A stretch of DNA of 63,698 bases, counting the filler. It is 3 parts of 3 records of this genome, joined end to end, with 100 filler letters (N's around TTAATTAATTAA, not from the genome) between each part and the next. Parts side by side here need not be neighbours in the genome. Positions count along the whole stretch, not along the records: positions 1 to 19,579 come from SRR20825019_585; 2 more parts are not named here. One strand, given 5' to 3'. Both the position numbers and the translations under genes were made by a program. Below the pieces are notes generated by a model, which was not told the DNA's origin, did no database searches, and saw only the letters and a list, made by a program, of their open reading frames with translations. Of the stretch, positions 398 to 38,931 are shown piece after piece. The number at the start of each line of letters is the position of its first letter. The stretch's first letter is position 1.

Positions 398-1344
398 TCA
401 AATCGGAGAACTTGCGGGACCCGATCCGGCTCGAAGCCATCGTCAGCTCAACCGGACTCGCCCGGGCTGATGCCAATGATCATCGCAACAGCCCGGCCCT
501 GCCGCTACGGCATCACAGTAGAGCCCAGTGAATTGAAAGCCCGCTGACTGCCGACAACTCGGATCCTGATCCGGCGTGCCGCGGCCCGGCGTGCGTGTGA
601 GAGCGGCCCAGCCCGGTGCTGGGCGCTGCCGGCCCGGCCGCCACGCCGGCACGAAACTAACTTCACCATGTTTGTACCACTCAGATTTGGAGCACGTGGC
701 GGTCAGTTCTTGGCTCGCCACGCCGGCGGTCGTGGTTGCGGGGGCCGGCCGATCAGTATCCGGCCCCGAGCCTGAGTGGCGGCCGGCGGCGGCGCCGCCC
801 TGGCGCCGCCCGGGCCCGAGCGGCAGCCGCCGTAACTGCGGTAAGGATAGTGATCATGCACCCATCCGATGGTGACTCGACGGCCGCGAGTCTCATCAGG
901 GCCATCACCGAGTGGGCAGGTTTCTCAACACCAAGGCCGCCACTGCGGAAGCGCTGATGTTGACCGACGACCCATGAAGGGTAGCTAGCCTGCGGGCCCG
1001 GCCGTCGATCGACAGGAGTATTCAGGCCATTACTGATTACCTCACTTCGCAACATCAGCTCATGAAGGTTAGTTGTTGAACGCACGCCAACAACATGCAA
1101 GGTCTGCCCCCGAAACTGGGGCGGGCCGAATAGTACCCACTGCGCATCGCCTAAGCTTTCTGCTAGCACTATCGACCCTATCTTGTTTGGAAAGAGAAAC
1201 GTCATGATTTTGTTTGTACCCGATAGGTTGTCGACAATTCCTTGTTGGCGAAAGGTTGGTGATAAATAATTCGATGGATAACCAAGGGAGGAAGACGTGG
1301 GTAGCAGGTGGGAAGCGTAAGAGCTTCTTCTTCAAGGGGGCGCC

Positions 1345-3861
1345 ATGTTGGAACCGAGTATGATGGACCTCGGAGCCCTGTCGCGCTTCCGCACGGTACG
1401 CTGTCAACGAGGAGAAGGCTGCACCTATGGCCACCGTTGCCAGTTTTCTCACCACAAGTGGACGAGGAGAAATCCAGCCCACTATAAGTATAAGGCAGAT
1501 CTGTGCGCCAATGTTAAAGAACGTGAGGGAAGCAATGGAAAGACTAGATATGATAATAATTGTAAGCTGGAAAATGGGTGCCCTTATGCCCACAGCATTG
1601 AAGAACAACATTTTCACCCAGATAACTATAAGACCACGGAGTGTTCTGCTGACTATTCAGGAGACGGATGCCCTCGCGGCGAGTATTGCCCCTTCCTGCA
1701 TGTTGGAGAGAACCAACGAGAGATTCGTGATCGGTTGAGGGCAAGAGGCGGCGTAGAAGAAGACAAGCCAGTTCATCAGTGTGCTACAACCCCTGCCCCA
1801 GGAAGTGCGCAAACTGCGAACACAGCATCGGGAGGCCAAGCTGCGGAATCAAGTGGAGATATGGAGCCGTTTGTGATGGACATGGACTCGCTTTGTAGAT
1901 TTCGGACTGTTCAATGCAATAGGAACCCTTGTCACTTTGGAGAGCTCTGCAACTTTTCACACCATGAATATTGGCTACGCCGCAATCCTCTCAAGTTTTC
2001 TTACAAGGAGGAGATGTGCCAGAATGTGAAAGAAGCTATGACCTCTGATGGTCGTCAATATGACACAACTTGTAGGTTTGGCAAAAACTGCAGATACGCG
2101 CACAGCTTTGAAGAGCACATATATCACCCGTCTGTGTACAAAATGCAGCTTTGTGATTATACCAGAAAGGGGAAGACTTGTAAGCGTGGAGAAAATTGCC
2201 CGTATTACCATTTCGAAGAAGAGCACGCTCAAGCTGCAGAGAAGGAGAGGAGCATGCGCGCTTGTGATGGCAAGTCGGAATCCCTGCAAAAAAGATCTGC
2301 TAGTGGCAATGCAAAATCTGACAGCATCGATGCACAGGGCTCTGGGCAGGGTAGTGCACGGCCGTCGCCATCCCCCCCTGCCGTGGGAGAGCCACCCTTG
2401 ATTGTAGGCGGCGAGATGGATGGCACAGGGGTGACAGCCTCAACAGGTGGTATGTCATACGAAGCTCTGTGCAAATTCCGAACTGCCCGGTGCAACTATA
2501 CTCCTAATTGCGCTAACGGTGACAAGTGCGATTTCAGTCACTGTGTGTGGCTTCGCCGGAACCCGGCGAAGCTTCAGTATTCCGCGCAGCTCTGCCAAAA
2601 GTTGCGGGTGGTCGAAGGTGCCGGTGGTACTCATTATGAGAATACGTGCGCTGACGGCCGCTCCTGTGCGTTTGCCCATAGTCGGGAAGAGGTGCTCTAT
2701 CACCCAGACACATATAAGACGTCTGAATGCCGCGAGGACGCCGCTAACCCTGGCAATTGCCCTCGCGGGAGCAGGTGTGCTTATGTCCATCATGGCGAGG
2801 AAGTTAGGACACAGGGAACGAAGCCCGATGAAGGTGAAAAAGACGCTGCTACAGCAGGAAGCCGTGACGATGACTCTGCAGTAAGTGGTGGCGCGGAGTT
2901 GGACAACATTGGTATCGAAACTCTTTCGATAGATTATATCAACAACAACGAAGAAGATGATGAAGGGGCTCCCTTTCACGAACCATCATCATCACCTCCG
3001 GCATCATCTATTGGTGCGATAGGATCTGCTGCGCTTCCAATTCCTAATGCAGACAACGCAGGCACTGGTGCAGGCTTCTCCATATCATCGCTTGGTGACA
3101 GCATTATGTCGAATTCCTTTGGGGGTGGTAAATCTGTCGGTTTGATTGGGGCCTTAAGCCCCCTTCGCGGCAGTATGTTTGGAAACGTGAATTCCTCGTT
3201 GTTTGGAAATGCAGATTACGGTGGTGGTGACTTCAACGTGACGATGCCCTCTGCACAACAAGTGTCTGTGGACAATGGCTTGGGGCCACCATATGGAGTG
3301 CCAAGAAACCAAAGCTCGTTCAATGGTCAGGACTTCCAGCCCAAACCCAATCCACCGCGAGGTTCCTTCGACTCTGGGTCTCCATTCGAAAATACTGGGT
3401 TCGGTAGTCTCCCAGGCCCCGGAGAAAGTGCCTCTGCTGATATGTTGAGGTTGCGAGTGGAGCTTGATGATACCAAGCGGGCCCTACAAGACGCTCTTAA
3501 TCAGAAAGTAGAACAAGAGATGTCATTTAAGGTGGACGAGCAGAAACACCGGCACGAAATACAATACCTTTATCAGACTATCGAAGGTTTTGAGGGTCAA
3601 CTGCAAGACTTGAACAGGAAGCGACAGGACGATATTGAGGGCCTTCAGAATCAAATCAATCAATTGTGCGGCCATATTTACGCGGACATGGATCCAGAGC
3701 AACTTGATGCTTTAGAGCGTCAGTATTATACTGGGCTTCAGAGAATAGCTGAGATCAAGGGCCAGAGGCACCACCAGCAACAGCAGTTCAATGTTCCGCC
3801 GCATATGGCATTTCATCCTCCATCACATCCTCCGTCATTCCCCCCGCAATATCGCGGGTAG
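1345..3861 (+). CDS. Unkempt-like tandem CCCH zinc-finger RNA-binding protein (3 clusters x 3 fingers) with C-terminal coiled coil, intronless, 838 aa
   Basis: Three copies of FRTxxC..C..C..H / RRNP..Y...C..C..C.(Y/F)AH / EE..(Y/F)HP..YK...C..C.RG..C...H. A Ser/Gly low-complexity region and a coiled coil (LRLRVELDDTKRALQ...) follow. No RING seen. Confidence 0.85.
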   Translation: MLEPSMMDLGALSRFRTVRCQRGEGCTYGHRCQFSHHKWTRRNPAHYKYKADLCANVKEREGSNGKTRYDNNCKLENGCPYAHSIEEQHFHPDNYKTTECSADYSGDGCPRGEYCPFLHVGENQREIRDRLRARGGVEEDKPVHQCATTPAPGSAQTANTASGGQAAESSGDMEPFVMDMDSLCRFRTVQCNRNPCHFGELCNFSHHEYWLRRNPLKFSYKEEMCQNVKEAMTSDGRQYDTTCRFGKNCRYAHSFEEHIYHPSVYKMQLCDYTRKGKTCKRGENCPYYHFEEEHAQAAEKERSMRACDGKSESLQKRSASGNAKSDSIDAQGSGQGSARPSPSPPAVGEPPLIVGGEMDGTGVTASTGGMSYEALCKFRTARCNYTPNCANGDKCDFSHCVWLRRNPAKLQYSAQLCQKLRVVEGAGGTHYENTCADGRSCAFAHSREEVLYHPDTYKTSECREDAANPGNCPRGSRCAYVHHGEEVRTQGTKPDEGEKDAATAGSRDDDSAVSGGAELDNIGIETLSIDYINNNEEDDEGAPFHEPSSSPPASSIGAIGSAALPIPNADNAGTGAGFSISSLGDSIMSNSFGGGKSVGLIGALSPLRGSMFGNVNSSLFGNADYGGGDFNVTMPSAQQVSVDNGLGPPYGVPRNQSSFNGQDFQPKPNPPRGSFDSGSPFENTGFGSLPGPGESASADMLRLRVELDDTKRALQDALNQKVEQEMSFKVDEQKHRHEIQYLYQTIEGFEGQLQDLNRKRQDDIEGLQNQINQLCGHIYADMDPEQLDALERQYYTGLQRIAEIKGQRHHQQQQFNVPPHMAFHPPSHPPSFPPQYRG

Positions 3862-4013: not shown

Positions 4014-7000
4014 CTAGAACTTCTTCTTTGAAGGTTGTTTTCCGAACGTGAACGTCCCGAAAAGTGCGCTAGCAAGGTCAGAACTTTCTGCTTCTTGTTC
4101 TACTGTGCTTTCTTCGAAGTCATTTCCGGCTAGATCGAGATGTCGCAGTGCTGGGCATTCTTTCCGGACTTCAATAAATTCCTCCACCACTTCTCGAGAT
4201 ATTTTGTTGGATTGCAACTCAAGATGAACAATATTCTTGTTCTTTTTGAGAGCTTCCACAAACGCCAGTGCTCCTTCGTCCCGAACTCGACAGCCGCTCA
4301 GATTGAGCATCTTGATTCTTTCGTTTTCCTAAGTACCTGGGTTAGTGCACAATCAATCGCACCATCCATACATCTCAATCGTACCGCGACAGCATTTCCA
4401 ATTTCCACAGCACCATCACTGCCAATCTTGTTGTAGTACATATCTAACTCAGTTAGGGAACAGTTTTCCTTGAGAATCGCAGCCAATGCGAAGGCACCAT
4501 CCTCCTTGATCCCGATTTTCTGAATCTCCAAAGCACGCAAGGTGGCTGTCTCTTTGCGAAACACTTGATCCAAAAAGCGCTCGAACCCACGATCTCCCAA
4601 GAAATTGCCGTTAAGTTTCAGAGTCGTCAGATTTTCTCTTTCCTGAAAAATACAATCAGATTGGAACTGTGCAACACAGAATGGCCTCACATTCAACAAC
4701 TTAGAAACTGAATCCAAACCCCCCTCCGTCATCCCGCAGTTGCTTATATCGAGACAATGAAGAAACCGATTTTCCTGATTCACGTCAGCTTACATCACCC
4801 TGTCGCTCATGTGTGCAATACCTTCAAACCAAACGACAACGTATTGATACCCGAATCTCCTATGTGGTTGCCACTGATAGATAGCTTTCCAACATACTTG
4901 TTCTCCTAAACAATGGGCACGTTAACTTTCATTCCGTATCCTGTGACACGAGAACCAACCCTCAGAGATGACGCTAGCGCTGCTGCACCAGAAACGCCAA
5001 TCCCTTCACTCATGTCCGTGGGATCCTGGTAAATATTTAAATCGGTAATTGTCTCGTTGTGCTGCGAAATAGAATTAGATCAACGCAATGGGTATGCCAA
5101 CCTACATACTGATAGCATATTTCCAATCACAGTAACTTCTTCAGGACCAATGCGACAATTAGGTAAGCGTAGGCGCATTCCCTCCTTCACGATTTCTTCG
5201 TCGGAAACACGTTTGAAATGAGCGCAAACAGAGCACATAGCCCGAATAGAAGAATAAGCATCCTCCAACACCAATAGCTTCAAGAATTCATCCTTGCCTA
5301 GTTCTTCAATCGTTGCATCGTATTCATCTACAGGCGTCGATCCAGCAGCGGCTAAAAGAACTGAAACCAAACCATCTGTTGACAGAAATCCCCTCAGCAT
5401 AGAGATTACAGACGCAACACTGGCAGCGGACTCATTCATGCACCGTGAAAAGGGTCTATCACCAGGCGTGGAAAAATGCTTCTCCACAATCATGCCTGCA
5501 GATTGAATAGCATTCTGCAATGCGGTATGGGCGGTAGAGCCACGCACAAGCTCTTCGCTACCCTCCGATATGCTGACGCTGGGCATGCTAGCTTCGATTT
5601 CAGAGGCAATATGCGCTGCAGATAGATACTCTGCAAATACTCTAGACGAGAATCGGAAATTACAGATTCTCTCGTCTTCATTCTCAACAGTCTCCTCTTC
5701 AAGAGCCATCAGTAGAGGAAAATGCCCTCTCCTTACTGCAGACTCGAGCAGCGGCCACACAAGACCCTCCGTACAGGAAGAGTTAGTAGTTTCCAATGAA
5801 AGAGCTTCCTCGCCGCGAAATATGTCACCATCCATATGAAATATGTATCGGTGTGCGAGTAGCTGCAGAAAAGACTTCATGTCTCGAAGCATCTGGTCGT
5901 CAGAAGAGTCGAAGATATGGTCTCTTAGATGCCTCAAAAGGACCAGTAGACATTGATTGAACAATACACATCGATCCGAAGGTAGGTCCGCAGAATTATT
6001 TGTACGGTACACGCGGAGAAGAAGAAACAGAAGCTGGGGTGTCTCTGTCACTCTTGCGTAGTGTTCATCCTTCCGAATGGCAGAAAGGAAACGCTCTACA
6101 TCCGTAATATCTAGGAGCCTTGATAAAACTAACTGACTTCGAACACTCTGACTCAACTCGCGAATACCAAACCATTCCCATTGTGTTTCCCTACATAGAG
6201 AATCTAATAGCTCCCAATGCATGGGACGACTCATTAGAATCAGGTGCTGGCCTTCCATATGCAACATCTTGATCAACTCGACAACAGCATCAACAGCGTT
6301 CGGATTTAACTCGTCAAATCCATCCATGACGACAAGTAAATTCCCAGCTTTTCTCTGAATTGATATGAAATCTACATACATGGCCATTTTTTTCATCATA
6401 TATCGGGTCAACAGGTCTCCGTGGAGTTCAACGCTTTCGGAGTCTCGTCGTGTTTTCAAAGAGCGCACTAAATCTGGCAGAGCAATATGCAATGGCAGTC
6501 GATTAGTACTCACTTTTCCGTTCACAACTTGCTGACGCTTAAAGCAGGCATGCAAAAATATTTGCTCCGCCAAAACGGATTTTCCACTTCCAGCAGGTCC
6601 CAGTATCAACATGTGTCTAGTAGTTCTTTGGAGTTTGTCATCCAAATAGGAAAGACCGCTGACTACATCAGCAGAAAGCCAAGCGTTCGCAACGCCACCT
6701 AATTCTCTCCTATTCATCCGCCCGGATTTCCCCCCAACAATAGTATCCGGCACATTAGCATCAACTCGAAGGCCAACGCCAACCAAGAAGTCAGAAAAGG
6801 AGGTCACTACTTCTCTTCCATATTCCAGAAACTTTTCTCGAATATCAAAATCCATTGGGCTCATTTCAACAGCACAGGGCGTCTCCATAATGTTAATTCT
6901 TTGAGCCGATATAGGATCGACCATATCACTGTGCTCTAGCAAGGCATTTCTCATATATTGCATTTCTTGGTGTTCCATCTCAAATTTCATTTCCTCGCTT

Positions 7001-9489
7001 CTTGTTCGCTTCTTCAACGGGGCGGTGGGAGATTTTTCGTTGGTTTTCTGCTTGCTTGATGATGGCCTGGCTGCAACCACCTTCGGCGGGACCTCTTCCA
7101 TAGGTTCTAGCCGAGCCCATATGGCCAGGGTCCGTATGCGCACCGACGAGGCACCCACTAGACTGGAAACAGATTCCATCAGCAAGCTTGCGCTTCGGAT
7201 GGACGCCAAAATGACCGGACGGGGAGTGTTCTGATTGATTCCATGCAATATCTGCAACACATACAACAGCATATCGACATACCACTGCGCTGCTGCAGCT
7301 AGAAGATTGCCTGTGATTGTAGCATATCGTCTGACCCAAATTCTCAATAACACTATGCAGTCATATTGTAAAACAACCTTAGATGACACTTCCTTCGTTG
7401 GATCTAACTGAAGTACATCCCAAGGAGATTTTCCTGACAAAGACGCGTCCATTACTCGCGTCAGATCCGCCGCATCAGGATCACCTGGATCGGCAAGGCC
7501 AAGCTCAAGGAGCAAAGCGATCTCCATTCGCGCAAGATCGGTAAATATCGATGCATTGATTGAAGTGTTGTTACCTCCTACCATCCATACTGACATTTCT
7601 CCATCTACAATCACATTTACAGGACTCAGATTACCGTGTTGTACTCCGCTGAATACAGGAGCCAGCATCAACTTCTTGGATCCTTCGCTATCCAAACTCA
7701 AAAGGAAGGTTCCCACAACATTTGAAAAGTCATCCAAGCTCTTCTTGAAACCCCTGGCAAAGCAAAATTAGATAACTACATACACTAATATGGAACAACA
7801 AGTGTTTCCTTACTCATTGGTGTTCGAATCACTCCTTTGTTTCAAAGAGGCCAATGCACCATTTCCCAATTTTTTCAATCGCGCTAACCTTTCTTTTCCG
7901 CTGTCATGAGAAATGAAGTCGTTAGGCGAGGAGACTTTCCCGAACACCCGATTCATAACTTGAGTGATGTCATCAGGATGCCAGCGCATTCCATCTTTCT
8001 CAGCTGGAGCGTCCCTGACTTCGGTGTACATAGACGCAAGATCCGAAAACGGCACTATTGAGGTTACCTCAGGTGCCATTCGAGTAACAGAAGGAAGCTC
8101 CACAAGAGATGCCCCCCACATCACTCCTCCTGCATCAGGCACATCATCCACAACATCTTTCACGGACGGAATGCAGTCATCGCCCCACTGCTTCTGCAAA
8201 ATTTTCAATCCAACTATATCTCGCTTAATCTCTTTTGATAGAGCCACGCGAATAAAACCGGGTTCTTGATATCGGCCATTCCAATCTACCCCTCGTACTT
8301 GTAGACAAAAGGTCATTGGTTGATCACTTGGCAAGGATCGTATTAACGTTCTCACCCAACCTGATGTCAACTTTCTGACTACATCTCTTATAAAATTCAC
8401 CAAGTGTTTCTCCTCGAGCATCGTGACACCCCACTTGTCTACTTCACTGAAGTTTTGAATCAATTTACCTGAGGAGGATTGTTGTTTTGGAGGAGGAACC
8501 ACCCAGTCCCAGTAATGAAGTTGCATCTCCTCGTCCACGAGTGAAAACGGCACACATGGCAATCCTTCAGCACGAAAGGGTATGGTGTGAATAAGGTCAA
8601 ACGATGCCAAACAATCGGAAGGATCTTTTGGACTCAGCGAAGTACCTCGCCATTCGCATGTAGGAGCTACATTCTCACATCCTGTAGAGTGAATCGATGT
8701 GATATTCCTCCCGGGATACTTCAGGGTCGAACATGACATATCGTGTGCGACCTTCACCATTTCATCGTATGCACGGCCAAGCCTGATCGGATGGGCTTTG
8801 CTTAACTCAACAGCTGGCGTCCAATATCTCCTTTCACATTCAACATTCCCCCTTAATGTTACAGAATATGCCTCGCCCAAGATATGATGTGCGAACGAAG
8901 AGTCTATCTGACTCATCCACTCGTCACGGTGAACGTGAGCTCCCACGTAAAATCGTACTTTCATCATAAGTGGGCCTATCCTGTAAAACATATTGTTTTC
9001 TAAAATTTGTTCGTACACTTCCTTTCCAGGCTTTGACGATGTAAATGCGTCCGTCCAGTGCTCTTCACCAAGATTACCCTCTAGGTACATGGCAAACTCC
9101 TCATAGTCTCTTGGTCGAAAGTTGCAGAGAACGTACAGGTACTTTTCAAACCCATCCCTACTAAATCGAGTCAAGAAAACCTCTGTTTTGGATAGCCGCT
9201 GAAAGAGCTCGGGTACCGTTTCATCTTCTCGCAAGCCAACTACATTAGCTTTACCATAACCTTCTAGAAGGTCCGTCAAGGCCTCTTCATTTTCTGGTTC
9301 CGGCACAACTTCAGTCAAACTTAACCGGAGCACATGCACTTGCCACCTGCGAAGGTCTATTTTTGAAGCACCTTTTACCTGCAATACCATCGCCAACTCT
9401 CGAGCCTCTTTTGGGGCCATTTCCGCAATCGCAATGAACTCCTCCTCGAGAACTTGAGAGACAGAATCTCTTGCAGATAAGGCAGCCAT
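4014..9489 (-). CDS. NLR-like protein: unknown N-terminus + degenerate APH/TCAD9-like domain + NACHT NTPase + ribonuclease-inhibitor-type LRRs, 7 exons, ~1720 aa
   Basis: Walker A GPAGSGKS, Walker B LLVVMDGFDEL, sensor LMSRP and TPQLL; LRRs such as LKLNGNFLGDRG and LDMYYNKIGSDGA. GT-AG introns at 7754-7813, 5062-5109, 4906-4959, 4775-4821, 4643-4690 and 4329-4384 join the ORFs in frame (5163 nt spliced). The start codon is uncertain. Confidence 0.8.
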
Positions 9490-10337
9490 GGCCAAGGCCA
9501 CGGGAACCCCAGCAGTGGAACTGTTGGCAAGTATAGCCTATATGTCTTGATGGCTCGTTTCAACGCCAGATATACTGGTCGTCTGCCAAGGATTTGGTCA
9601 ACTTCCAAGCATAAAGCACGACTCACCACACCACACTGTGCCTTACCCAAGTCGACCGTGGGCACGGGTGCCACGCACGGAGGCCGGCGCGGCAGGCCGG
9701 TTCGTTCTATCCGGCCCGGCCACTGCTCAGCGTGAGTCGTGGCTGCCAGACTCTGCCTGCTTGAGATGTTGTGATTACTAAATCCGATGTTCTCCCCGAA
9801 ACAGAACAATACCTTCAAGACCACCCTCGACAACACGTTAAATCGAGATCGCAGTCCACTATTTCCTCAAATCTTATTGGCAGATCGACAACCCTAGTAT
9901 CCTGATTCCTTCGGCCCACGAGCTAGCCCGCAGTTGGCTGTCTCACTCATCGTTGGTTCTCCGCCGGCGAGCTGCCCCCTCCAAGACCCCGCAGCATCCA
10001 GCCATAGTGGTGGTCCACTGTTTTAGCAGTTGGGACCTTCCTTGCTCTCCTCTGGTTCTCCTCGTTGTGTCACGGAAGGCTTGAAGGGCTTTTGCCCAAC
10101 TTCTCGGCCGGCAGGATGGATGCTACGGTCAGTCAGCGGAAGGTAGAGAAGTGAGTCTCTAGCCGAGTAGGGGGACATAAATATCGGTGGGTGACCACTG
10201 ATTTCGTTCCCACTATCACCCATACCTGTCCTCGCACACTCACACCGCAGCTCACACCCACCACTCACACGAAACTGCTCACAACACCACACGCGATATG
10301 ACTATTGCATCACTCTAACACATCACACACATCAAAC

Positions 10338-13300
10338 ATGAGGCAGAGTGACAAGAAATTCTTTTTTTTAGTTTTGCTGCTACACTTCGTAGCAACTGTG
10401 AAATGCGCCGCACCAGTTGCTACGGCGGCAACATCATGTGGCCAGAGTCTGGAGCAAAGAATGATCCAATTGGCGGGCACAGACGCAGATGGAGATAGCC
10501 TGACAGCTAAGATTACTTCGCTCCCAGCTACTGGCACCCTGTATCAAACAGATGGAGTGGAAAAGGGAGACGCTATTACTGCTGTTACCACGACGGTTGT
10601 GAACTCAGGTAGGAGAAGTGTTACGTTTCTCTGATCGTTTTAACGTTTCAACAGATCTGCTTGTTCTGTACGTTCCGACCGCAATAAGTGGTTCAGTAAC
10701 ATTCAACTTTGTTGTGAACGATGGAACGTCGGATTCTGCTGCTGCGGTTGTGACAGTGAACCTTGAATGCCCAGAGCTGGCACATGATAGTACTGTCTTC
10801 TTCAAGCAGAATGCCAATACAACTCATCAACTTCTACTGGAGAACAGCTACTCGAATGCCGCTGCGGTGACCTCCATTCCCGATGGTGATATTGCTGACG
10901 TGTATCAGACTAGTGATGGGCAACTGTTGGGAGATAATCTCCGTGGTCACGCGCTGCAGTTTAACAATCGAGAAGCAAACATTACTTTGGAACAGAGTGC
11001 GTCCCAAAATCTTGATGCGTCGTTTACGATTGAGTTGTGGCTATACATCAACACAACTATGGCAGATCTTCCTTGGGGATACACATGCCTGTACGCTCAA
11101 AACTACACTATCCTGTCAAAGCCAGCTGTTTATCCCGATCATTTCCATAAGGCCAACGAGAGCAGAATTTTCCTCGAAGTCACGGATAGTTGCAGAGTTC
11201 ATTTCGGATTCCTTCACGATTCCCACTCTCCACAAAACTTCACGACTCTATCTCCTGATATAACTCAACAGAAGTTGCTTGTTCCAAAGGAGTGGCATCA
11301 CATCGCAGTTGTTCTTGATTCAGCCGCCAGTCAAATGAAGTCATATGTCAATGGGTCTCTCGATTCAGTATCGGATGGAATAGGGACTACGCCTGATATG
11401 AGTGTACCCGATGGTGGGTACCTAGAGGGATTCTCGATTGGCAACAAGGACTTGCTCAATTTTGATGGCGCAATTGATGAGCTTCGCATCTGGAATGCTG
11501 CAAGAACAAGTGACCAGATATCAGGAAACTATACTGCGTCTTTCAAAGAGCTTGGTCCTCTCGATAACTTGGTTGCATGTTTGCCATTTGATGACGAATC
11601 AACATCCTTTCCTAACGATTGGTCGGGTAACGCTAATCATGCTCGATTGAAAGTTATAGATACTGATGTACGCAGCGTTTGCTCCTCAAAGACCACCTGC
11701 ACCGTTAAAACATCATGCTTTTCAACGGCTTTGAGCGGATGCGAGGATATCAAAACATGCAACACAACTTCCGAATGTGTACCTGTGTCAGTGTCGTCTG
11801 GTATTGGAGACTTGAATGCCTACTTTTTTGAGTCCAGCGCTCCGATAGCTCAGTTCCCGGGCGGGCGTAACGTTGAAAACTCTGATGGAAAGGTTATTTT
11901 TATTCCCAAGATTGGCTGTCCTAGTATACAAAACATTACCTTTGTTGCTCGTGCCGGGTCTACAAATCCTTGCCCCACAGCTATGACTACTCATACTCAT
12001 GTGTTCAAAATGATTAACGTTTTTAACGAAATTGAAAGCATGTACGAGGATTCTACACAATCTTTCTCCTTGACTCAAGTCCTTGGAACATGTAGCCATG
12101 ATACAAACAGTATGTTTCTTTGGTCAACTCCTCATGATGGCTCAACGTTTCAGTATGATGGCACTACGTCCATAAGCGAACCTAGTTCTCTGACGGACAG
12201 TACTTCTACGAACAGAATTGTGTACACTCCACCCCCAGTCGTGTCCGGGAACCCATATGAGCTAGTCGGAGTCACGGTGACAGATGGTTACGGCTATGGA
12301 GGCGAAGCTGTATTTAGTATTGTTGTCGATAATGTGAATGATGTTCCTGTAGCAACCAACCAGACTGTGGATGTTATTGAGGATGAATATGTCGTGATAA
12401 CACTCAGCGGGACGGATGATGATTATCCACTTATTGATACTCACACAGCGTATATTCAATCGTTGCCCGAACAGGGATTCCTTTACCAACTCGAACAAGA
12501 TCAAGGGATCATTATGGACAGTGCATCAGGACTACGCAGAGGGTTGGCAATACTTACCGTCCCCACGAAGCTGACAGATGCAAATCAAGTGATCTATATT
12601 CCCAATTATGATATTCGTGGCACTGCCGTGGATAGCTTCTTATTTTCGATATATGACGGATGGGTTCATTCTGATAACGGCGCTGTGACTCTTGATGTTA
12701 CTCCGATGATCGACATTGTACAGCCAGAAACGCAAACCCTTCGATTCTATGGTATCAGTGTTACTGACGTGGATTCTCGGACGGACTATTTGAATGTGTC
12801 AATTACCTCCACTTATGGAATTTTATCCACATTAGAGGTTCCTTCCGGCCTTTTAACTTACGAGAAAGTTGGAGAGAACAACTTCGGAAATACACTGAAG
12901 TTCTCGGGTCCAAGTACTGTCCTGAACGAAGCCTTGGGACAATTGACTTACTCCAAGAATACGACATATACATCATACGACACGTTGACGTTTTCAGTTG
13001 ATGATAATGGTTTCAATGGCGAGGGGTCCGCAGGGAGTGATACCCTCACAGTTAGTGTTCTGATGGATGCTATTGTTATTCCTCATGTAGATCGAATTAT
13101 TCCAGCACACGGAGCAATGGTGGGTAATACCCTGGTTACTGCTGTTGGAAAATACTTTGTCAATGGAACCAACTATTGTAACTTTGGAGTCAATTCAACG
13201 GAGGCTACATTTGTGAACGAGAAGCGAATGATCTGTCGCTCACCGTCTCTGGTAGATCCAACTGTTGCAAACGTAACGGGCCAATTCGCTGTTTCATTCG

Positions 13301-16300
13301 ATGTTACGAGTAATCTTATCAAGTCACAAGATACGCTAAGGTTCATATATCGAAATGTTCCCATAGTCACAAGTGTGTATCCTGAAGTAGGATCTGCGGC
13401 TGGCGGTACTCTTGTCACTATCGCAGCCACCAATTTGTTTGAAAACGATCAAAGCGAATTGGTTTGTAAGTTCGGAACGAATCGCCCAACGCAAGCTACT
13501 TTTATATATAGTGACATCATTCATTGCCGCACTCCCGAGGAGCCCTCCGAAGTTGATTCAACAAATCAACGGAAGTGGTCTTCAGTAGAAGTTTCTTTTA
13601 ACAATCGTGATTTCTCCGTGTCAAACGCAACATGGGTTTGGTCCTCTCCTCTTCGAGTGACTCAAATATATCCCTCATTTGGGGGCCAGCGTGGCCATTC
13701 AATTGTGACAATAGACGGCAATGGATTCTATTCTAATCCAAATATTCTACGTTGTCACTTTAATCACACATCTACGCTTACGGAGGCGACTCTGATATCG
13801 TCTACGCGAATGGTTTGCCCAAGCTCGCCAAGCACCCAAACAACATTATCATCGGTTTTTGTAACGCACAACAATGAGGATTTTTCGACGGAGTATCATC
13901 CTTTCGAATATATTCAGGACGATGAAGTGACAGCTGTTGTCCCATTGAATGGATATAAGTTTGGTGGTACTATGGTCACTGTAATGGGGTATGGTATGCA
14001 TAATACAACACATATTCAATGTCGGTTTACAGAGGCAGACTCAGCGCGTAGACAGCCCGCAACGTTTCTTTCATGGAGCTCTGTTCAATGCTTGACCGTT
14101 GGAGTTGAAATTGACCATTTGATTACAAGTGTTGAGGTGTCTCAAAACAATAATGATTTTACGACTGATTTGGTTGCGTACCATTATGATCTTCAGTACA
14201 ACGTAAGCAAGATCTTTCCTGAAATTGGAAGGCAGGGTGTCACTTCAGTAACTGTGTTTGGAGAGGGAATTCCACACTTGACGACTTTAAAGTGCAAGTT
14301 TGGAACGTACGAAGTTGGTGCTGACTTCGGGACATATGAAGTTGATGCAGAATATGTTCACACGGAGCAGGTTGCCATTTGCAAGCCACCGGAGTACATT
14401 GAAAGCGACCCACAAGCGCTTCAGGCGTTCCCATTCTACTTCTCCAGCAATGGATACGACTGGTTCCAGTCAGTCACTAGTGAAGGCCTCAATTTTTACT
14501 TGAACTATCCAAATGTAACTCGCATTGAGCCTGTGTCCGGTCCAGTCGAAGGCTACTCTCTTGTGACGGCATATGGCTATGGGTTTCATGATCATACGCA
14601 TTTGCACTGTTCCTTCAACGGTAGTGAACTTATCTACACACCTGGAACTTATATCAGCATAACTGAAATCAGGTGCTTATCTCCAACTGCTGATGACCCA
14701 ACTACAGTCGATTTTCAATTGATCAACAACAACAGAGATGCCACATTTTCTAATTTGCTTTTCGAATATAAGATGCGGGAGCATATTACGTACATACTGC
14801 CCAGAAATGGAGCAACAGTGGGATCCACACTTACAACTCTGTACGGAAATTACTTTGCTAATGATACAAGGATTCATTGTAGATTTGGCTCTTTTGGAAG
14901 ATATAATGCAACGTTTGTCTCGTCCACGGAGGTGCTGTGTTTTTCACGACCTGCACTGGCCGATGGTGATATTGTTTCAGTAGAAGTGAGCCACAATAAC
15001 CTCGATTTCACATCTGATACTCATCAGTTCCGGTATTACGACATGCCCAATGCAACATACATACATCCGAAGTTTGGACCTGCAAATGGAGGCGCCTTGA
15101 TTACTGTCCGGGGCAGTAAATTCCAGCCTACGGATGAATTGTATTGCAAGTTTGGAACGCAGCCTATAACATCCGAAGCTACGTATGTGTCTCCGATAGA
15201 AATCCTTTGTAGGTCTCAACCTCTTCTCCCCATTACGGCCGCTCCTACTACTCCCGTGAATTTGGAAGTCTCAAATAATAATGTTGACTTCACAAGTGAT
15301 GAGAACAGCTTCTGGTTCCAGAACAACGTAACTGTAAGTCTGGTGTCTCCAAATTCAGGAACTTGGTACGGAGGAGAGATGATCGATGTGTACGGATCCA
15401 TGTTCTCGAAGAGATCGGACGACTTCTCCTATCTTTTCTGCCGATTCGGTGATACTGCTGCATTGTCTAGCGAGGCGGAGCTGGCTCATGCCACATGGGT
15501 ATCAGATACTCATGTCAAGTGCCTGACATCCCGATACAACTCTACTGAGGGTGGTCGGGTTAGGGTCATGGTTTCTAACAGCATTGACGCCTTCGATTTT
15601 CAACACGATTGGGCACCTATTCCTGAAGTTTCGTTCTTCTACCGGAACTACACAACATTGACTTACCTATCTCCTCGACATGGGCCCGAGGGAGGTCATA
15701 ACATGGTCACAGTGGACGGATATAATATGGTGCAGACCACAAATCTCAAGTGCAAATTCAACGATGTATATACTGTTGCCACGTATGTTTCGTCAACCCG
15801 TGTGAGGTGTGTGACGCCGGAGTTGACGCAAATCACCCATAATGACATGCGCAACATTACTCTTATGCTGACTCCGCGTGAATACGAAGATTATAGCGTC
15901 ACCTTGAAGAACCTTGTTTACACCTTCGACGAACAGATCAACGTCACGAACATTTACCCAATATCAGGAACTTATCTAGGAAACACAAGTATCACCCTAC
16001 AAGGATTGAATTTCCTTGACACTCATGATATTGTGTGCAATATTCGCACTGGTGTCAATCAAACTGCCGTCCCTGCCACATATCTGAACGAGAAAACGGT
16101 GAAATGTGAATCGATTGTCGGTTATGTTGGTGAGATTACTGCCATTGAGTACTCAAGCAATGGCCAAGATTTCACAAGCGACAACAACTACTTCACGTAT
16201 ATTGCCAACCCGGTTCTGTCTTCTGTGTTCCCCGCACAAGGGCCTGTTGATGGTGGTGCCAATGTAACTGTCTCTGGTCTAGATTTTGCAGATACTGGAG

Positions 16301-19300
16301 ATATCAAATGTGCATTTGATTCTGTGTCCACAACCGGGTCGTTTTTGTCAATCACCGAGGTTGTCTGCCCAGGTCCATCGAAATCTCAGACATCTTCAAC
16401 TCCTCTTGTAAAACTGTCATTTAACGGAGGAAATGACTTCACAAGCGAGGTAATTTACTACGGGTTCAAGGAAAAAGTGTCCGTATCTAGACTCGAGCCT
16501 TCATACGGGCCAGTGAGTGGGGGATCAAATGTTACTGTCTACGGAGAAAATTTCTTCACTGGATCCAATGCTACATTTGAATGCCAGTTTGGTGCTGAGA
16601 TTCCATATGTTGAGGCTATATATAACTCTACAACATCTATCATGTGTTGGTCGCCGAAAGCCTCTGTTGGTGGCGCCCATGTCACTGATATGGAAGTACG
16701 GGTACTCGAGTATGGAGCCCTCGCCTACACCACTGCAGATGGAGTGCAATACACTTATAAGGATGACCCAATAGTGACGGAAGTGTATCCTGGGTATGGT
16801 TTTGAATTTGGATATAACCTTATTACTGTGCATGGATCTGGATTCTTTGAGACAAGTTTCCTAGCCTGTCGATTTGGATTGAACGATACATTGAGAACAT
16901 CGGCAACATATATGACCAGTACAAGCGCCTTATGTTATACTCCTCCGGTTGACTACAATCAGACTCTCTCGGTCGAGATGTCGAACAACTACCACGACTT
17001 CTCTTCTGGTGGTGTCGGATATGTTTTCACCAACACGTCGTTGATTTATGATATTGAACCTCCGAGAGGTCCAGCCAGAGGAGACACCTTGGTGCTATTG
17101 AGTGGGAGAAATTTTGTTCAAAACACTACTCTCAACAGCATTCGATGCAAGTTCGGAACAAGAATTGTACAAGCAACCTACAAGTCTAGTTTTCAGGCAC
17201 TTTGCCGGTCCCCAAGCAGTGCAGGACGAGTTGAAGGAAATGTCTACTTGGAATACTCGGTGAATGGTGATCAATTCACCTCCACGAATGCTATCTTTGA
17301 GTATCAGCATGATGCAGAGGTGACCTTTGTAGAGCCTTACTGTGGATCACTGCATGGGGGTACACTGTTATCAGTCTATGGCGTTGCTTTTGCCAACGAA
17401 ACAGAGCTGTCCTTCGAGTTTGGAGGCACCATTCACGATGCTTTGACTTTGGTTACTTCAACGAAAGCGTTGGTTTTGTCCCCACCACACGGCACGGCAG
17501 GTTTCCAGCCTCTCGAAGTAGCTACAAACGGCATCGACTACACATCAGATGGTCTGTACTACCGGTACCACGATAATCTTGCCGTGTCCAGTATTTCACC
17601 GGTGGGTGGCTCAGAGACAGGGCTAACTGAAGTATATGTTTACGGGGATAATTTCATCGATACATCCCTGCTCCGGTGCAAGTTTGGTTCAAACGTGGTC
17701 AATGCTACCTGGGTTACGAAATCAGAGCTCCTATGTTTGTCACCGACTAATTCGAATTTAGGAAATGTCACTGTTGAGGTTAGCATGAATGAGGTAGATT
17801 TCACATCTGACAACACCCTATTCGAATATTATGGTAAGGAAAATATCCTCATTCCTGTGACCGACTCTAACACGACTATCAGGTTCCATTAGTATTACAA
17901 AGGTTGCTCCTAACAGGAGTCCCCTGAACGGATACATGGTGTCGACTATTCAAGGAGAGCGTTTCTATGAAAGATTCGCGCGAAGAGGGTATCTGCTGTG
18001 TCGTTTCGGAGTTCGGGAATCCATTGCAACATGGATCAGTGAAACGGAGATTCTGTGCCAAACAAAACCAAATAGTGCCTCTCCAGTTTCGTTGGAGGTT
18101 TCGTCTAATGCCCAGCAGTTTTCGGCGACTGGATCCTCGTTCTATTATGACACAATTCAAGTGACAAAGCAGCTGCCTATTAGTGGCCCAGTTGATGGAG
18201 GAACATTGGTCAATTTCCATGGAAGTAATTTCACTGATCAAGACGGAGTCTATGAGTTTACTTTTGGGTCTTCTACTGTGGTGGGAAGCTGGATCTCTTC
18301 TACTCAGATTGACTGTGTATCTCCTGCCATGGCCCAGGGCACCTATACCCTGATGGTGAATTTCAATGAGGGACCGCTTTACACAGGTGACTTCACCTTC
18401 CAGCCATTTAGACCCGAGGTAACAATTATCGATCCGGTAACTGGACCGCAACACGGAAATACTTCCATTAATCTATATGGGAGAAATTTCCAGGAGGATT
18501 ACTTTTATTGCATGTTTAAGAAGGGCACAAGCGAAACTCGAATCAAAGGAACAATGTTGACATCTACTCACGCGCGCTGCTTGTCACCAAGCCTACGCAC
18601 GATTAGAGGGTACATCTACGAAACTGTTTACCTTGAAGCTAGCATCAACAACAGGGACTACACCACAGGGTTGCACACTTTCGAGTTCCAGTCACTTGCA
18701 ATTATGACGGAGATTATTCCTAAGATGGGACCGGTTTCAGGAGGCTCGATTGTCACACTATTGGGCGAAAACTTTTCGAAGAGGTCTGCTACTCTGAAGT
18801 ACCAGTTCTGCCGATTTGACAAGGACCTAAGTGCTGTAACCCCTACAACATTTGTGACTTCAACGGAGGTAATATGCCTATCACCGCCAAGATCTCAAGG
18901 ATCAGTTCTAGTTGATATGACCAACAACAAGTATGACTATTCTAGTGATATTGATCAAGTCGATTACAGTCCTGGTGTTCTCTCTCGAAGCAAGAGTCTG
19001 TACTTCCAATATCACGAGTTGAATATTACGAATGTTTTCCCAGCGAACGGTCCCGAGTTTGGTGGAACCATGGTTACCATGTTTGGACACAACTATATCG
19101 GGACTGAAGGGATTATTCGCTGCCAGTTTGGAACAAACCCAGATCGCACGGTGGCTACCCTAGTCTCTGAAACCCAGATTGAGTGCTTAACACAACCGCA
19201 TGATCGTGGAACCTATGCAGTTGTTCTTTCAAACAATGATGCAGTATACCGTGACCATTGGACGTTTACATTTGATCCGATGGCAAGTGTCACAGCACTT

Positions 19301-19579
19301 TATCCGAGTATGGGACTCGATATTGGCGGCACTGTTGTCGAAGTTTTCGGAACAGGTTTTCTACATCAAACTACTCTTCAGTGCAGATTTGGAAGCTTAG
19401 GAGATGTTGTTTTCGCAACCTATCAATCGAGCTCGTCCGTATTGTGTAAGTCAGTTCCGCACGCGCAAGATCGAATTTGGGTGGAAGTAGCCAATAATAT
19501 GCAGGATTTCACAAGTAGCGAAATAATATATCATTACGAAACCGCAAACGTGACTACGGTGATGCCAAGACGAGGACCC
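10338..19579 (+). CDS. Giant secreted/surface protein: signal peptide, cadherin/Big-like modules, LamG domain, >=23 IPT/TIG repeats (truncated by contig end)
   Basis: MRQSDKKFFFLVLLLHFVATVKC signal; LamG motifs FTIELW, WHHIAVV, FDGAIDELRIWN; repeated V..v.P..G...GGT.V...G..F......C.FG...VEVS.N..DF units. Introns at 10609-10654 and 17834-17882 restore the frame. Confidence 0.85.
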
Positions 19580-19679
19580 NNNNNNNNNNNNNNNNNNNNN
19601 NNNNNNNNNNNNNNNNNNNNNNNTTAATTAATTAANNNNNNNNNNNNNNNNNNNNNNNNNNNNNNNNNNNNNNNNNNNN
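19580..19679. other. Artificial contig spacer N44-TTAATTAATTAA-N44
   Basis: 100-nt linker with a six-frame stop core at 19624-19635; an identical copy is at 38741-38840. Confidence 0.97.
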
Positions 19680-27147: not shown

Positions 27148-28793
27148 TCAGAGCCTGCTCTGAGGGGTAGGCCTGCGATATGCAGTGACGACTGCCGCCC
27201 CCCCAATGCCAAAGTTATGCTGCAATCCCACCTTGGCACCCTCTACTTGCCGCTTTCCAGCCTCGCCCCGGAGCTGCGTGACGAGCTCGTGGCACTGGCC
27301 CAAACCCGTCGCTCCAATAGGATGGCCTGGCATTAGATTAAAACCAGCTTGCACTGCACATGGCTATACACTGTACCCTTGGAAAGCAAACCACCTGATG
27401 CGTTCACGACCCATCTGTCACCTAGATAGCACAAATCGCCCCCTTTCCAACAAGTTAGCTATGCGCAACGGCTTGAGATCGTATCTCCACACACCTTTGC
27501 TGTTACGCTTCCACTTGGCGGTTTCGACAAGCTTCCCACCATCTCCACGCGGGCACAGTCCCATGGCCTCGTACATCATCAACTCATTCGCACTGAAGCA
27601 GTCGTGCACCTCCAGAACGTCAACATCCCTGGGCGAGATACCGCTCTCAGCAAAGACCTTCTTCGCGGCCTCCTCGGCCATCTCAGCACCAGCCTTTTCA
27701 TTGACGAACTCGTCAGTCCGGATCCATGAAGATGAATGAAGTACACCTACCAAAGCTCTGAAGCTTCTCCCTTCAAACGATGACGGGAGGTCAGTCACCA
27801 TAGCCTGGCCAGCGATCTCAACCGCTCGATCCATGAGATTGTTCTTAACAACATATTCATGAGAACAGACGATAGCACAGGCCGACCCATCAGCTGTGGG
27901 GCAAGACTCAAACCGTGTGATCGGCTCAATGATTGACTTGCCATTCTTAATTGAGTCCATATCAAACTCCTTCTGGATCTGTACTAAATTTAGAACACAA
28001 GATGAGTTATAGATTCTGCATTCGAAATTATACCTGCGCGTTGGGGTTGTTAACAGAGTGCTTATGGTTCTTGTATGCAATGGCTTGGAAATGGTCCTTC
28101 TTGCTTCCATACTTTTCCATATGCTCTTGAGCCGCGTACGCAAAAAGCTGCACCGCCCATCGCACTCAGATGTGACATTTTGACAAGTATGATGCCTCGC
28201 AAACTACATACCTTCACAATGTTCTCGGTAAAATCATTGTTACCGGGCATGAGTTTGGTGCGGCTGGCACCTTGCTGGAACATCTGCTCGAAGTGGCGGT
28301 GGGTTGGCGGCTCACGGTCATCGTACTTCTGGGTAAGTCCACGCTCCATTTTCTCGAACCCCAGAGCCATGACGCAGTTGGCGCCTCCAGCGACCATTTT
28401 CCTATGCATCGTGTTAGCACACTGGTACATCCAGAGAGCCCTATGAAGAATCACCTTGCAAGGAAAAGTGCAGTGGAACCTGTAGAGCAGTTGTTGTTCA
28501 CATTGACAACAGGAATGCCGGTAAGGCCGAGTTCATATACTGCGCGCTGGCCACAAGTAGGGTCACCATAGCAGTACCCGGCGGCGGCAAACTCAACATC
28601 AGAATACGGAACTCCGGCGTCCTTGAGGGCTTTCTGACCGGCCTCTCTCGCCATATCGTAGTACTGCCAGTCACGGGCGAGTGGCCGTTCAAACCTATAT
28701 GAACGTTGCGAGTGAGTAGACGGGCTAAGCCATACGTTCTTTTGATACCTACTTGGTCATACCAACTCCAATAACATAAACTTTCTTGGACAT
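27148..28793 (-). CDS. SCP2/SCPx-type thiolase without a fused SCP2 domain, C-terminal PTS1 (SRL), multi-exon
   Basis: [15 protein letters not shown] start; [33 protein letters not shown] and LQHNFGIGG motifs; ends PTPQSRL-stop. Confidence 0.9.
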
Positions 28794-38715: not shown

Positions 38716-38740
38716 CCCCCCCCCCCCCCCCCCCCCCCCC
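38716..38740. repeat. Poly-C25 at the contig end
   Basis: Homopolymer abutting the spacer; likely an assembly break or read artefact. Confidence 0.8.
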
Positions 38741-38840
38741 NNNNNNNNNNNNNNNNNNNNNNNNNNNNNNNNNNNNNNNNNNNNTTAATTAATTAANNNN
38801 NNNNNNNNNNNNNNNNNNNNNNNNNNNNNNNNNNNNNNNN
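38741..38840. other. Artificial contig spacer; eukaryote/bacterium boundary
   Basis: N44-TTAATTAATTAA-N44, identical to the first spacer. Confidence 0.97.
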
Positions 38841-38931
38841 CATCCATGGCTCCGCACAGTTTTGGAAAGCATCCCCCACCCACTCCCCGAACTAATGCAG
38901 ATGCCTACTAATTAAAGGCAGGAGACAACGA

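Follow-up and report, generated by a model that had tools for sequence, protein, structure and literature searches.

A probable NACHT and leucine-rich repeat gene of a eukaryote with a diverged TCAD9-type domain that lacks both catalytic aspartates

Receptors of the NLR type, named for nucleotide binding and leucine-rich repeats, in animals, plants, fungi and bacteria are built on one three-part logic, and links between the bacterial and the eukaryotic repertoires are few. Some plant NLRs carry or guard pseudokinases. To our knowledge, the TCAD9 domain is known only from bacteria. In bacterial conflict systems, most kinase domains have disrupted catalytic residues and a few are active kinases of the aminoglycoside phosphotransferase (APH) type (PMC7159879); protein kinases are named among the N-terminal effectors of bacterial NACHT proteins (10.1101/2022.07.19.500537), and TCAD9 is listed among kinase-like family profiles (10.64898/2026.09.18.752743). 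Here we describe a gene on the minus strand of a 63,698-nt stretch of DNA (the window; filler letters between its joined parts included), in the part that comes from record SRR20825019_585. We think it fairly likely that this is one expressed eukaryotic gene for a STAND/NLR protein of 1720 aa, with an orphan N-terminus, a diverged TCAD9-type domain without both catalytic aspartates, a linker, a NACHT nucleoside triphosphatase (NTPase) and about 9-10 leucine-rich repeats (LRRs).

A first-pass annotation, made by a model from the sequence alone, had proposed a spliced gene of ~1720 aa at positions 4014-9489, and the open frame agrees with it: seven minus-strand exons join into 5160 nt, or 1720 codons with 0 stops (Table 1). 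Read from stop to stop without splicing, the minus strand instead breaks up into two long frames (7810-9537 and 5080-7767) and several shorter frames that reach as far as 4014. Transcript data were taken from contigs of two public runs (X1 and X2), which cover part of the window and whose kind is unrecorded; we treat these contigs as complementary DNA (cDNA) because template-switch-oligo and Nextera adapter sequence is attached to their loose ends. In these contigs, four of the six introns have been spliced out, all of them GT..AG on the minus strand. They include the intron at 5062-5109, whose splicing the annotation had named as decisive for a single gene; an X2 contig skips its 48 nt. Contigs also cover 5117-7121 piecewise without any joint, and the 3' two-thirds of the gene is thus expressed. 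Because the cDNA shows spliceosomal introns removed, the gene can be assigned to a eukaryote. One further X2 contig, with tails of template-switch oligo, joins position 4727 to 6332 on opposite strands; in all likelihood it arose as a chimera in the library and does not reflect a form of the transcript.

The other two introns, 1 and 5, are predicted, and they resemble the confirmed ones in having CTAAT or CTGAT 10-17 nt before the AG and in length (60 and 48 nt, versus 47-56 nt). The motif of intron 1, ATCTAATT, is identical to that of confirmed intron 2. If intron 5 were retained, the protein would gain 16 aa; its removal restores the 28-aa spacing of the repeats.

The annotation's reading of a NACHT domain and of LRRs of the ribonuclease-inhibitor (RI) type was supported by profile searches. 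Pfam NACHT (PF05729) matches exon-2 aa 380-543 with an E-value of 2.9e-10 and 40.7 bits against a cut-off of 26.7, and the motifs are intact: in the spliced model, Walker A (GPAGSGKS) is at aa 944, Walker B (LLVVMDGFDEL) at aa 1031 and LILMSRP at aa 1063. To judge from such comparisons, the NACHT is very divergent. A search of PDB sequences with exon 2 or with the NACHT region alone found no solved NLR. The PDB matches of the NACHT region (PPR, Sec18 and FleQ-type) are at chance or P-loop level and were set aside, as were PADLOC matches at P-loop level (mad8, 2e-5) and the NCBIfam EruA NACHT match at 3.5e-5, which is far under its own cut-off. For the repeats, PF13516 (LRR_6) gives 38.2 and 36.4 bits on two exons, against a cut-off of 23.4, and the 86 aa encoded by exon 4385-4642 match ribonuclease inhibitor at 1.4e-19 and NLRP3 at 1.4e-11 among PDB sequences. 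The 28-aa register was found at seven positions matched by regular expression. All five introns of the LRR region are in phase 0 and lie between repeats, and each of two 84-nt exons encodes exactly one 28-aa repeat. Such a modular exon layout (4017-5061) would permit gain or loss of repeats by exon duplication.

Ahead of the NACHT, at 7510-7641, is the motif that the annotation had related to TCAD9 and APH. The relation is upheld by four approaches (Pfam, hhalign, BLASTP and language-model features), which agree on both family and register. TCAD9 (PF19974), named beforehand in the annotation, is the only kinase-like family matched among 24,736 Pfam models (E-value 5.4e-4, 19.7 bits); with intron 1 read through, the score is 19.3 bits and the match is no longer. 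Because no relative of the protein was found in the collections searched, comparison sets were built from bacteria. The sets are the three matches that PF19974 has in 401 genomes, the 71 relatives of one such match, and 29 further loci. The 71 domains, termed the tc subfamily, are all N-terminal in proteins of ~830-1760 aa; the choice of query and the length window bias this set. A second profile was made from seven canonical TCAD9 domains of Chloroflexota (Pfam scores of 123-135 bits for the four scanned).

When exon-2 aa 1-242 are aligned with the 71-sequence tc profile, hhalign returns a probability of 90, an E-value of 1.7e-6 and a score of 46.8, while 150 shuffles score 14.1±2.2 with a maximum of 21.5. 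The seven-sequence Chloroflexota profile gives 45.3 over 107 columns (aa 40-167), and here 50 shuffles score 14.8±2.8 with a maximum of 21.8. BLASTP aligns the segment with one bacterial TCAD9-STAND protein at an E-value of 2e-4 (24 of 86 residues identical). In the Atlas of language-model features, exon-2 aa 1-240 reach 0.95 with 207 of 256 features shared; the six matches at 0.9 or above are all bacterial TCAD9/APH clusters. Our conclusion from these comparisons is that homology to TCAD9 extends from the catalytic loop to the domain's end.

The fold of the family can be approached through its bacterial members. Bacterial proteins of the comparison sets also match Pfam APH (PF01636) across the same motif. 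An AlphaFold model of a bacterial TCAD9 domain, computed with the 71-row alignment, has a mean predicted local distance difference test score (pLDDT) of 93.1, and Foldseek matches it to 146 PDB chains at an E-value of 1e-3 or better, including methylthioribose kinase (1.8e-6), choline kinases and APH(4)-Ia (template-modelling score 0.58 by target). On the strength of this model, the TCAD9 family is predicted to have an APH/choline-kinase-like fold. All of the relatives retrieved, and all of the Atlas clusters, are bacterial.

Both catalytic aspartates, the catalytic base and the metal-binding one, are lost from the segment, as the annotation had stated: HGD has become HGN, and IDF has become VGG. 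The bacterial domains show how strongly these columns are conserved. The Asp of HGD, the loop Asn, the Asp of IDF and the Asp of D-x-A-x-x-E are each present in 71/71, and the Glu of D-x-A-x-x-E in 69/71. Our protein keeps the His, the Gly, the loop Asn and both the Asp and the Glu of D-x-A-x-x-E, with Asn and Gly replacing the two catalytic aspartates. The invariance of both lost residues in all 71 relatives argues against ordinary catalysis, and with both of them gone, phosphotransfer appears unlikely.

The bacterial sets also put the domain order in context. Among the 71 relatives, 32 have nSTAND5, six have NACHT and/or NB-ARC and one has AAA_22/PF20703, and tetratricopeptide repeat (TPR) families are frequent; in at least 39 of the 71, TCAD9 is N-terminal to a STAND NTPase (nSTAND5, NB-ARC or NACHT), which is followed by TPRs. 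TCAD9 occurs with nSTAND5 in two of the three genome matches, and a Chloroflexota protein (locus L026) combines TCAD9 (135 bits) with NB-ARC and NACHT. The annotation had not recognized the architecture as a described one; since the order of kinase-like TCAD9, STAND NTPase and repeats is common in bacteria, it is instead a known type. The order in our protein copies that of the bacterial TCAD9-STAND-repeat proteins, where an intact kinase-like domain fills the N-terminal output slot. What is unusual here is a eukaryotic, LRR-bearing and catalytically dead version with an orphan N-terminus. A bacterial protein of 1474 aa with another layout (locus L012, 234-6499; G138:C36) carries TCAD9 in its middle (aa 440-927) and, toward the C-terminus, a Glycos_transf_3-like stretch; the gene next to it encodes NUDIX with an RNA_pol_Rpb2_3-like stretch (30.3 bits, cut-off 21), an odd pairing.

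The N-terminal region has no assignable family, in line with the annotation, and extends over ~340 aa where ~370 aa had been given. Pfam TagF_N matches it at an E-value of 0.11, which is chance level; an Atlas search with exon 1 has a best match of 0.86, without a family, and we regard this as a lead only. Exon 1 has no match among PDB sequences.

Table 1. Coordinates of the gene and its parts in the window
Feature	Positions	Strand	Remarks
Whole gene	4014..9489	-	Start codon at 9489; stop at 4014-4016; 1720 codons in seven exons
Exons	7814-9489, 5110-7753, 4960-5061, 4822-4905, 4691-4774, 4385-4642, 4017-4328	-	Joined open frame
Intron 1, predicted	7754..7813	-	60 nt, GT..AG, CTAAT before AG; frame kept; two in-frame TAA
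Intron 2	5062..5109	-	48 nt, GT..AG; confirmed, X2 cDNA contig
Intron 3	4906..4959	-	54 nt, GT..AG; confirmed, X2 cDNA contig
Intron 4	4775..4821	-	47 nt, GT..AG; confirmed, X2 cDNA contig
Intron 5, predicted	4643..4690	-	48 nt, GT..AG, CTGAT motif; in frame, no stop
Intron 6	4329..4384	-	56 nt, GT..AG; confirmed, X1 cDNA contig
N-terminal region	8470..9489	-	~340 aa; no family in NCBIfam, PADLOC, PDB sequences or Pfam
Exon-1 C-terminal part, expected place of the N-lobe	7814..8469	-	aa ~341-558; hhalign 11.9-12.6, shuffle level
Detectable TCAD9/APH-like segment	7252..7653	-	Exon-2 aa 34-167, catalytic loop to C-terminal helices; HGN, VGG
Linker, kinase-like region to NACHT	6973..7110	-	Low-complexity, rich in Lys, Ser and Pro; read from the translation
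NACHT NTPase core	6124..6615	-	Walker A 6577-6600, Walker B 6307-6339; Pfam NACHT
RI-type LRR region	4017..5170	-	~9-10 repeats, 28-29 aa each; interrupted by five introns in phase 0

Searches for relatives covered proteins, metagenomes and the window itself. With exon 2 (881 aa) as the query, a collection of 5.8 billion proteins yielded no relative of longer or near length, in a search whose word filter limits its sensitivity. Phmmer with exon-2 aa 1-360 had 0 matches to 1.84 billion cluster representatives, and homology-based surveys of NLRs would therefore miss the gene. A scan of metagenome contigs with exon 2 gave 23 pattern matches, none of them a relative. In the window, tblastn returned self matches only, so that no paralogue is seen there, and a prokaryote genome that matches another part of the window (G001) has no match to the gene. 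Four parts of the protein were also compared by phmmer with the 71 bacterial proteins and the open reading frames of the 29 loci: the N-terminal, NACHT and LRR parts had no score, and the TCAD-like part alone did (best full-sequence E-values 3.5e-3 and 2.2e-4). Thus, a transfer of the whole architecture cannot be argued. The literature searched, which did not include subscription journals or supplements, yielded no NLR of a eukaryote that carries a TCAD9 or APH-like domain.

Several results weigh against the reading of a single gene with a TCAD9-type domain, or against parts of it. The cDNA cover ends at 7121, and the introns at 7754-7813 and 4643-4690 lie outside it, leaving the junction of exons 1 and 2 uncovered. 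The PF19974 score of 19.7 bits is below the gathering cut-off of 40, and the match places exon-2 aa 34-142 on profile positions 296-402 of 429. An HMM (hidden Markov model) of the 71 sequences gives only 5.0 bits (E-value 4.6e-4 for one comparison), and with a third TCAD9 subfamily profile, from nine sequences, the exon-2 part reaches 26.5, below the highest of 60 shuffles (28.9), which is not significant. Pfam APH (PF01636) has no match at E-values up to 1, and the likeness to APH comes only through the Atlas clusters. The exon-1 part at aa ~341-558 is at shuffle level against all three profiles (hhalign 11.9, 11.9 and 12.6). A single-sequence AlphaFold model of aa 290-794, made with the intron read through and X at its two TAA codons, has a pLDDT of 34 and is unusable. 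No homologue for a test of conservation was found in the searched collections. Finally, the NACHT has no special likeness to the NTPases of bacterial TCAD9 proteins; the module as a whole is therefore no more than a possible descendant of a bacterial one.

Some of these points would fit a reading in which only a C-lobe remnant is present, a fragment of an ancestral TCAD9 domain (the catalytic loop and the helices after it) within unrelated helical sequence, and no complete kinase-like fold. The similarity is significant only within exon-2 aa 34-167, the exon-1 part scores like its shuffles, and the AlphaFold model of the region is uninformative. However, true TCAD9 subfamilies recognize each other only across the same core (positions ~193-273 of the tc profile and ~268-375 of the C0 profile, both on L015-L023), so a silent N-lobe is to be expected and counts as weak evidence either way. 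In addition, the homology starts at exon-2 residue 1, which corresponds to position ~220 of a domain of ~430, and the first half of the domain must therefore be encoded upstream of exon 2. A relaxed hhalign run, with low column confidence, continues collinearly from exon 1 into exon 2; it puts FIRV, in an Arg-bearing beta-strand, under the ILK strand and a Glu under the Glu of the C-helix, and it matches CIPSV and WGASL to two more conserved patches. We consider a mere remnant rather unlikely. The same mid-domain start bears on whether exon 1 (7814-9489) could be a separate gene, with the NACHT-LRR gene starting within exon 2. That there is no cDNA above 7121 would fit such a split, and the frame of exon 1 reaches a TAA exactly at the proposed donor site. 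The missing 5' cover counts neither way, because it also fits cDNA libraries with a 3' bias. Against a split, intron 1 is a 60-nt GT..AG intron with the CTAAT of confirmed intron 2 and joins the exons in frame, and the first Met of exon 2 is five residues before the catalytic-loop motif, so that the protein would start in the middle of a domain. Two genes are thus improbable in our estimation.

It is still less probable that the resemblance to TCAD9 is due to chance, or that the domain keeps enzyme activity by means of other residues. The Pfam score under its cut-off and the one subfamily profile without significance could be cited for chance, and some kinases without canonical residues keep activity. 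These have to be set against four methods that give the same family and register, observed scores that 0 of 150 and 0 of 50 shuffles approach, and the loss of two aspartates that are invariant in 71/71 relatives, which speaks against ordinary catalysis. An alternative of a different kind, to which we give an appreciable but minor chance, higher than that of a remnant, accepts the gene and questions its role: the protein could be a STAND/LRR scaffold in ordinary signaling or in cytoskeletal or ciliary regulation, with the dead domain serving as a structural part. The LRRs do match axonemal and other proteins in the PDB (LRRC34, DRC5 and radial spoke protein 15), and there is no paralogue, and no family expansion visible, in the 38.7-kb contig. 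On the other side, NACHT combined with LRRs, and the resemblance to what bacterial conflict systems carry as N-terminal modules, speak by analogy for surveillance.

If the gene is a single STAND/NLR gene as favored above, and if it works like an NLR, a plausible mechanism would combine sensing by the LRRs, switching by the NACHT and signaling by proximity. The LRRs would hold the protein off and bind a ligand, and nucleotide exchange in the NACHT would then drive oligomerization. The N-terminal modules would be gathered in this way and might signal through induced proximity or scaffolding, not through phosphotransfer. The dead kinase-like module could offer a nucleotide-independent surface for interaction, regulation or bait, and the orphan N-terminal 340 aa would be the candidate for the actual output.

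A more far-reaching proposal is that the protein is a eukaryotic descendant of a bacterial TCAD9-STAND module, rebuilt with RI-type LRRs and introns, in which the kinase output has turned into a pseudo-enzyme that acts as bait or scaffold. We hold this to be unlikely on present evidence, about as doubtful as the remnant or slightly more so. If true, it would tie the architecture of eukaryotic NLRs directly to that of bacterial NTP-dependent conflict systems, and the protein would be the first NLR to have a dead APH-like kinase in the N-terminal slot. A TCAD9-type domain in a eukaryotic NACHT-LRR protein would be a test case for the change from an enzymatic effector to a non-catalytic signaling or bait module, and it would point to innate-immune-like machinery in a eukaryotic lineage that has been poorly sampled.

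The surroundings of the gene were also inspected. At 1321-3861, on the plus strand, repeated CCCH zinc-finger units are encoded by a gene that is convergent with the NLR gene, with the two stop codons ~150 nt apart; one cDNA contig of 3.1 kb spans the 3' ends of both. On the other side, at 10302-19627 on the plus strand and divergent from the NLR gene, is a very large secreted-looking protein with a signal-peptide-like start, Laminin_G_3 and at least 21 IPT/TIG repeats, in two long frames of 2429 and 588 aa. A match to the thiolase C-terminal domain (E-value 1.3e-15) at 27418-28203, minus strand, is one of the few conserved enzymes in the eukaryotic part and could help to place the organism. 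Rfam and tRNA scans of the window found nothing.

The window contains an artificial join at 38717-38840, where a poly-C run is followed by runs of N (38741-38840) around a spacer with stops in six frames, TTAATTAATTAA. To the left of the spacer is eukaryote-like DNA with spliced genes, and to the right the DNA is bacterial: positions 38841-63698 are 99-100% identical to G001, a single-contig prokaryote genome of 4.6 Mb (G001:C1:272093-296923, minus), in which 1-38740 have no match. The underlying assembly thus mixes a eukaryote with a bacterium, by contamination or co-culture. The bacterial contig opens with a short dispersed repeat (like a repetitive extragenic palindromic element, or an element end) at 38841-38888, where it also breaks: its initial 30-48 nt are found again, with 85-100% identity, at 18 more sites of G001.

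Of the described systems, the bacterial TCAD9-STAND-TPR proteins are the closest in layout (P0002-P0067, with Magnetococcales, Bradyrhizobium, Pseudoalteromonas and Gordonia among the sources, and L026). They have the same order, with a TCAD9-type domain N-terminal to the STAND NTPase and then repeats that form a superstructure, and they share the register of the core motifs with our protein. In P0041 and P0047 the NTPase is NACHT/NB-ARC, and in L026, as here, about 165 aa lie between the domain's end and the P-loop. The differences are that the bacterial proteins keep HGD, N and IDF in 71/71, carry TPRs instead of LRRs, mostly have nSTAND5 or NB-ARC, and have no introns; the tc subfamily also lacks the 340-aa N-terminal extension, and no kinship at the level of the NACHT is detectable.

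From the NACHT onward, the likeness is to animal NLRs (NLRP and NOD), which also have a NACHT followed by RI-type LRRs. The LRRs match those of NLRP3, NLRP5, NLRP14, NLRP1 and NLRX1, and we count the modular, phase-0 LRR exons as a further likeness. In contrast, the N-terminal module is not a PYD, CARD or BIR, and the NACHT finds no solved NLR. The APH, choline and methylthioribose kinases have the fold that the bacterial relatives share, and our protein keeps the scaffold of the H-G-x-L...N loop and the D-x-A-x-x-E helix but lacks both catalytic aspartates and a PF01636 match. Lastly, NLRs with kinase or pseudokinase modules offer a parallel in which a kinase-fold module, often disrupted, is attached to a STAND switch or works with it. 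The kinase modules of NLRs elsewhere are mostly of the Ser/Thr/Tyr protein-kinase type, whereas the module here appears to belong to the APH-like, small-molecule-kinase branch (TCAD9), in a eukaryotic NACHT-LRR protein.

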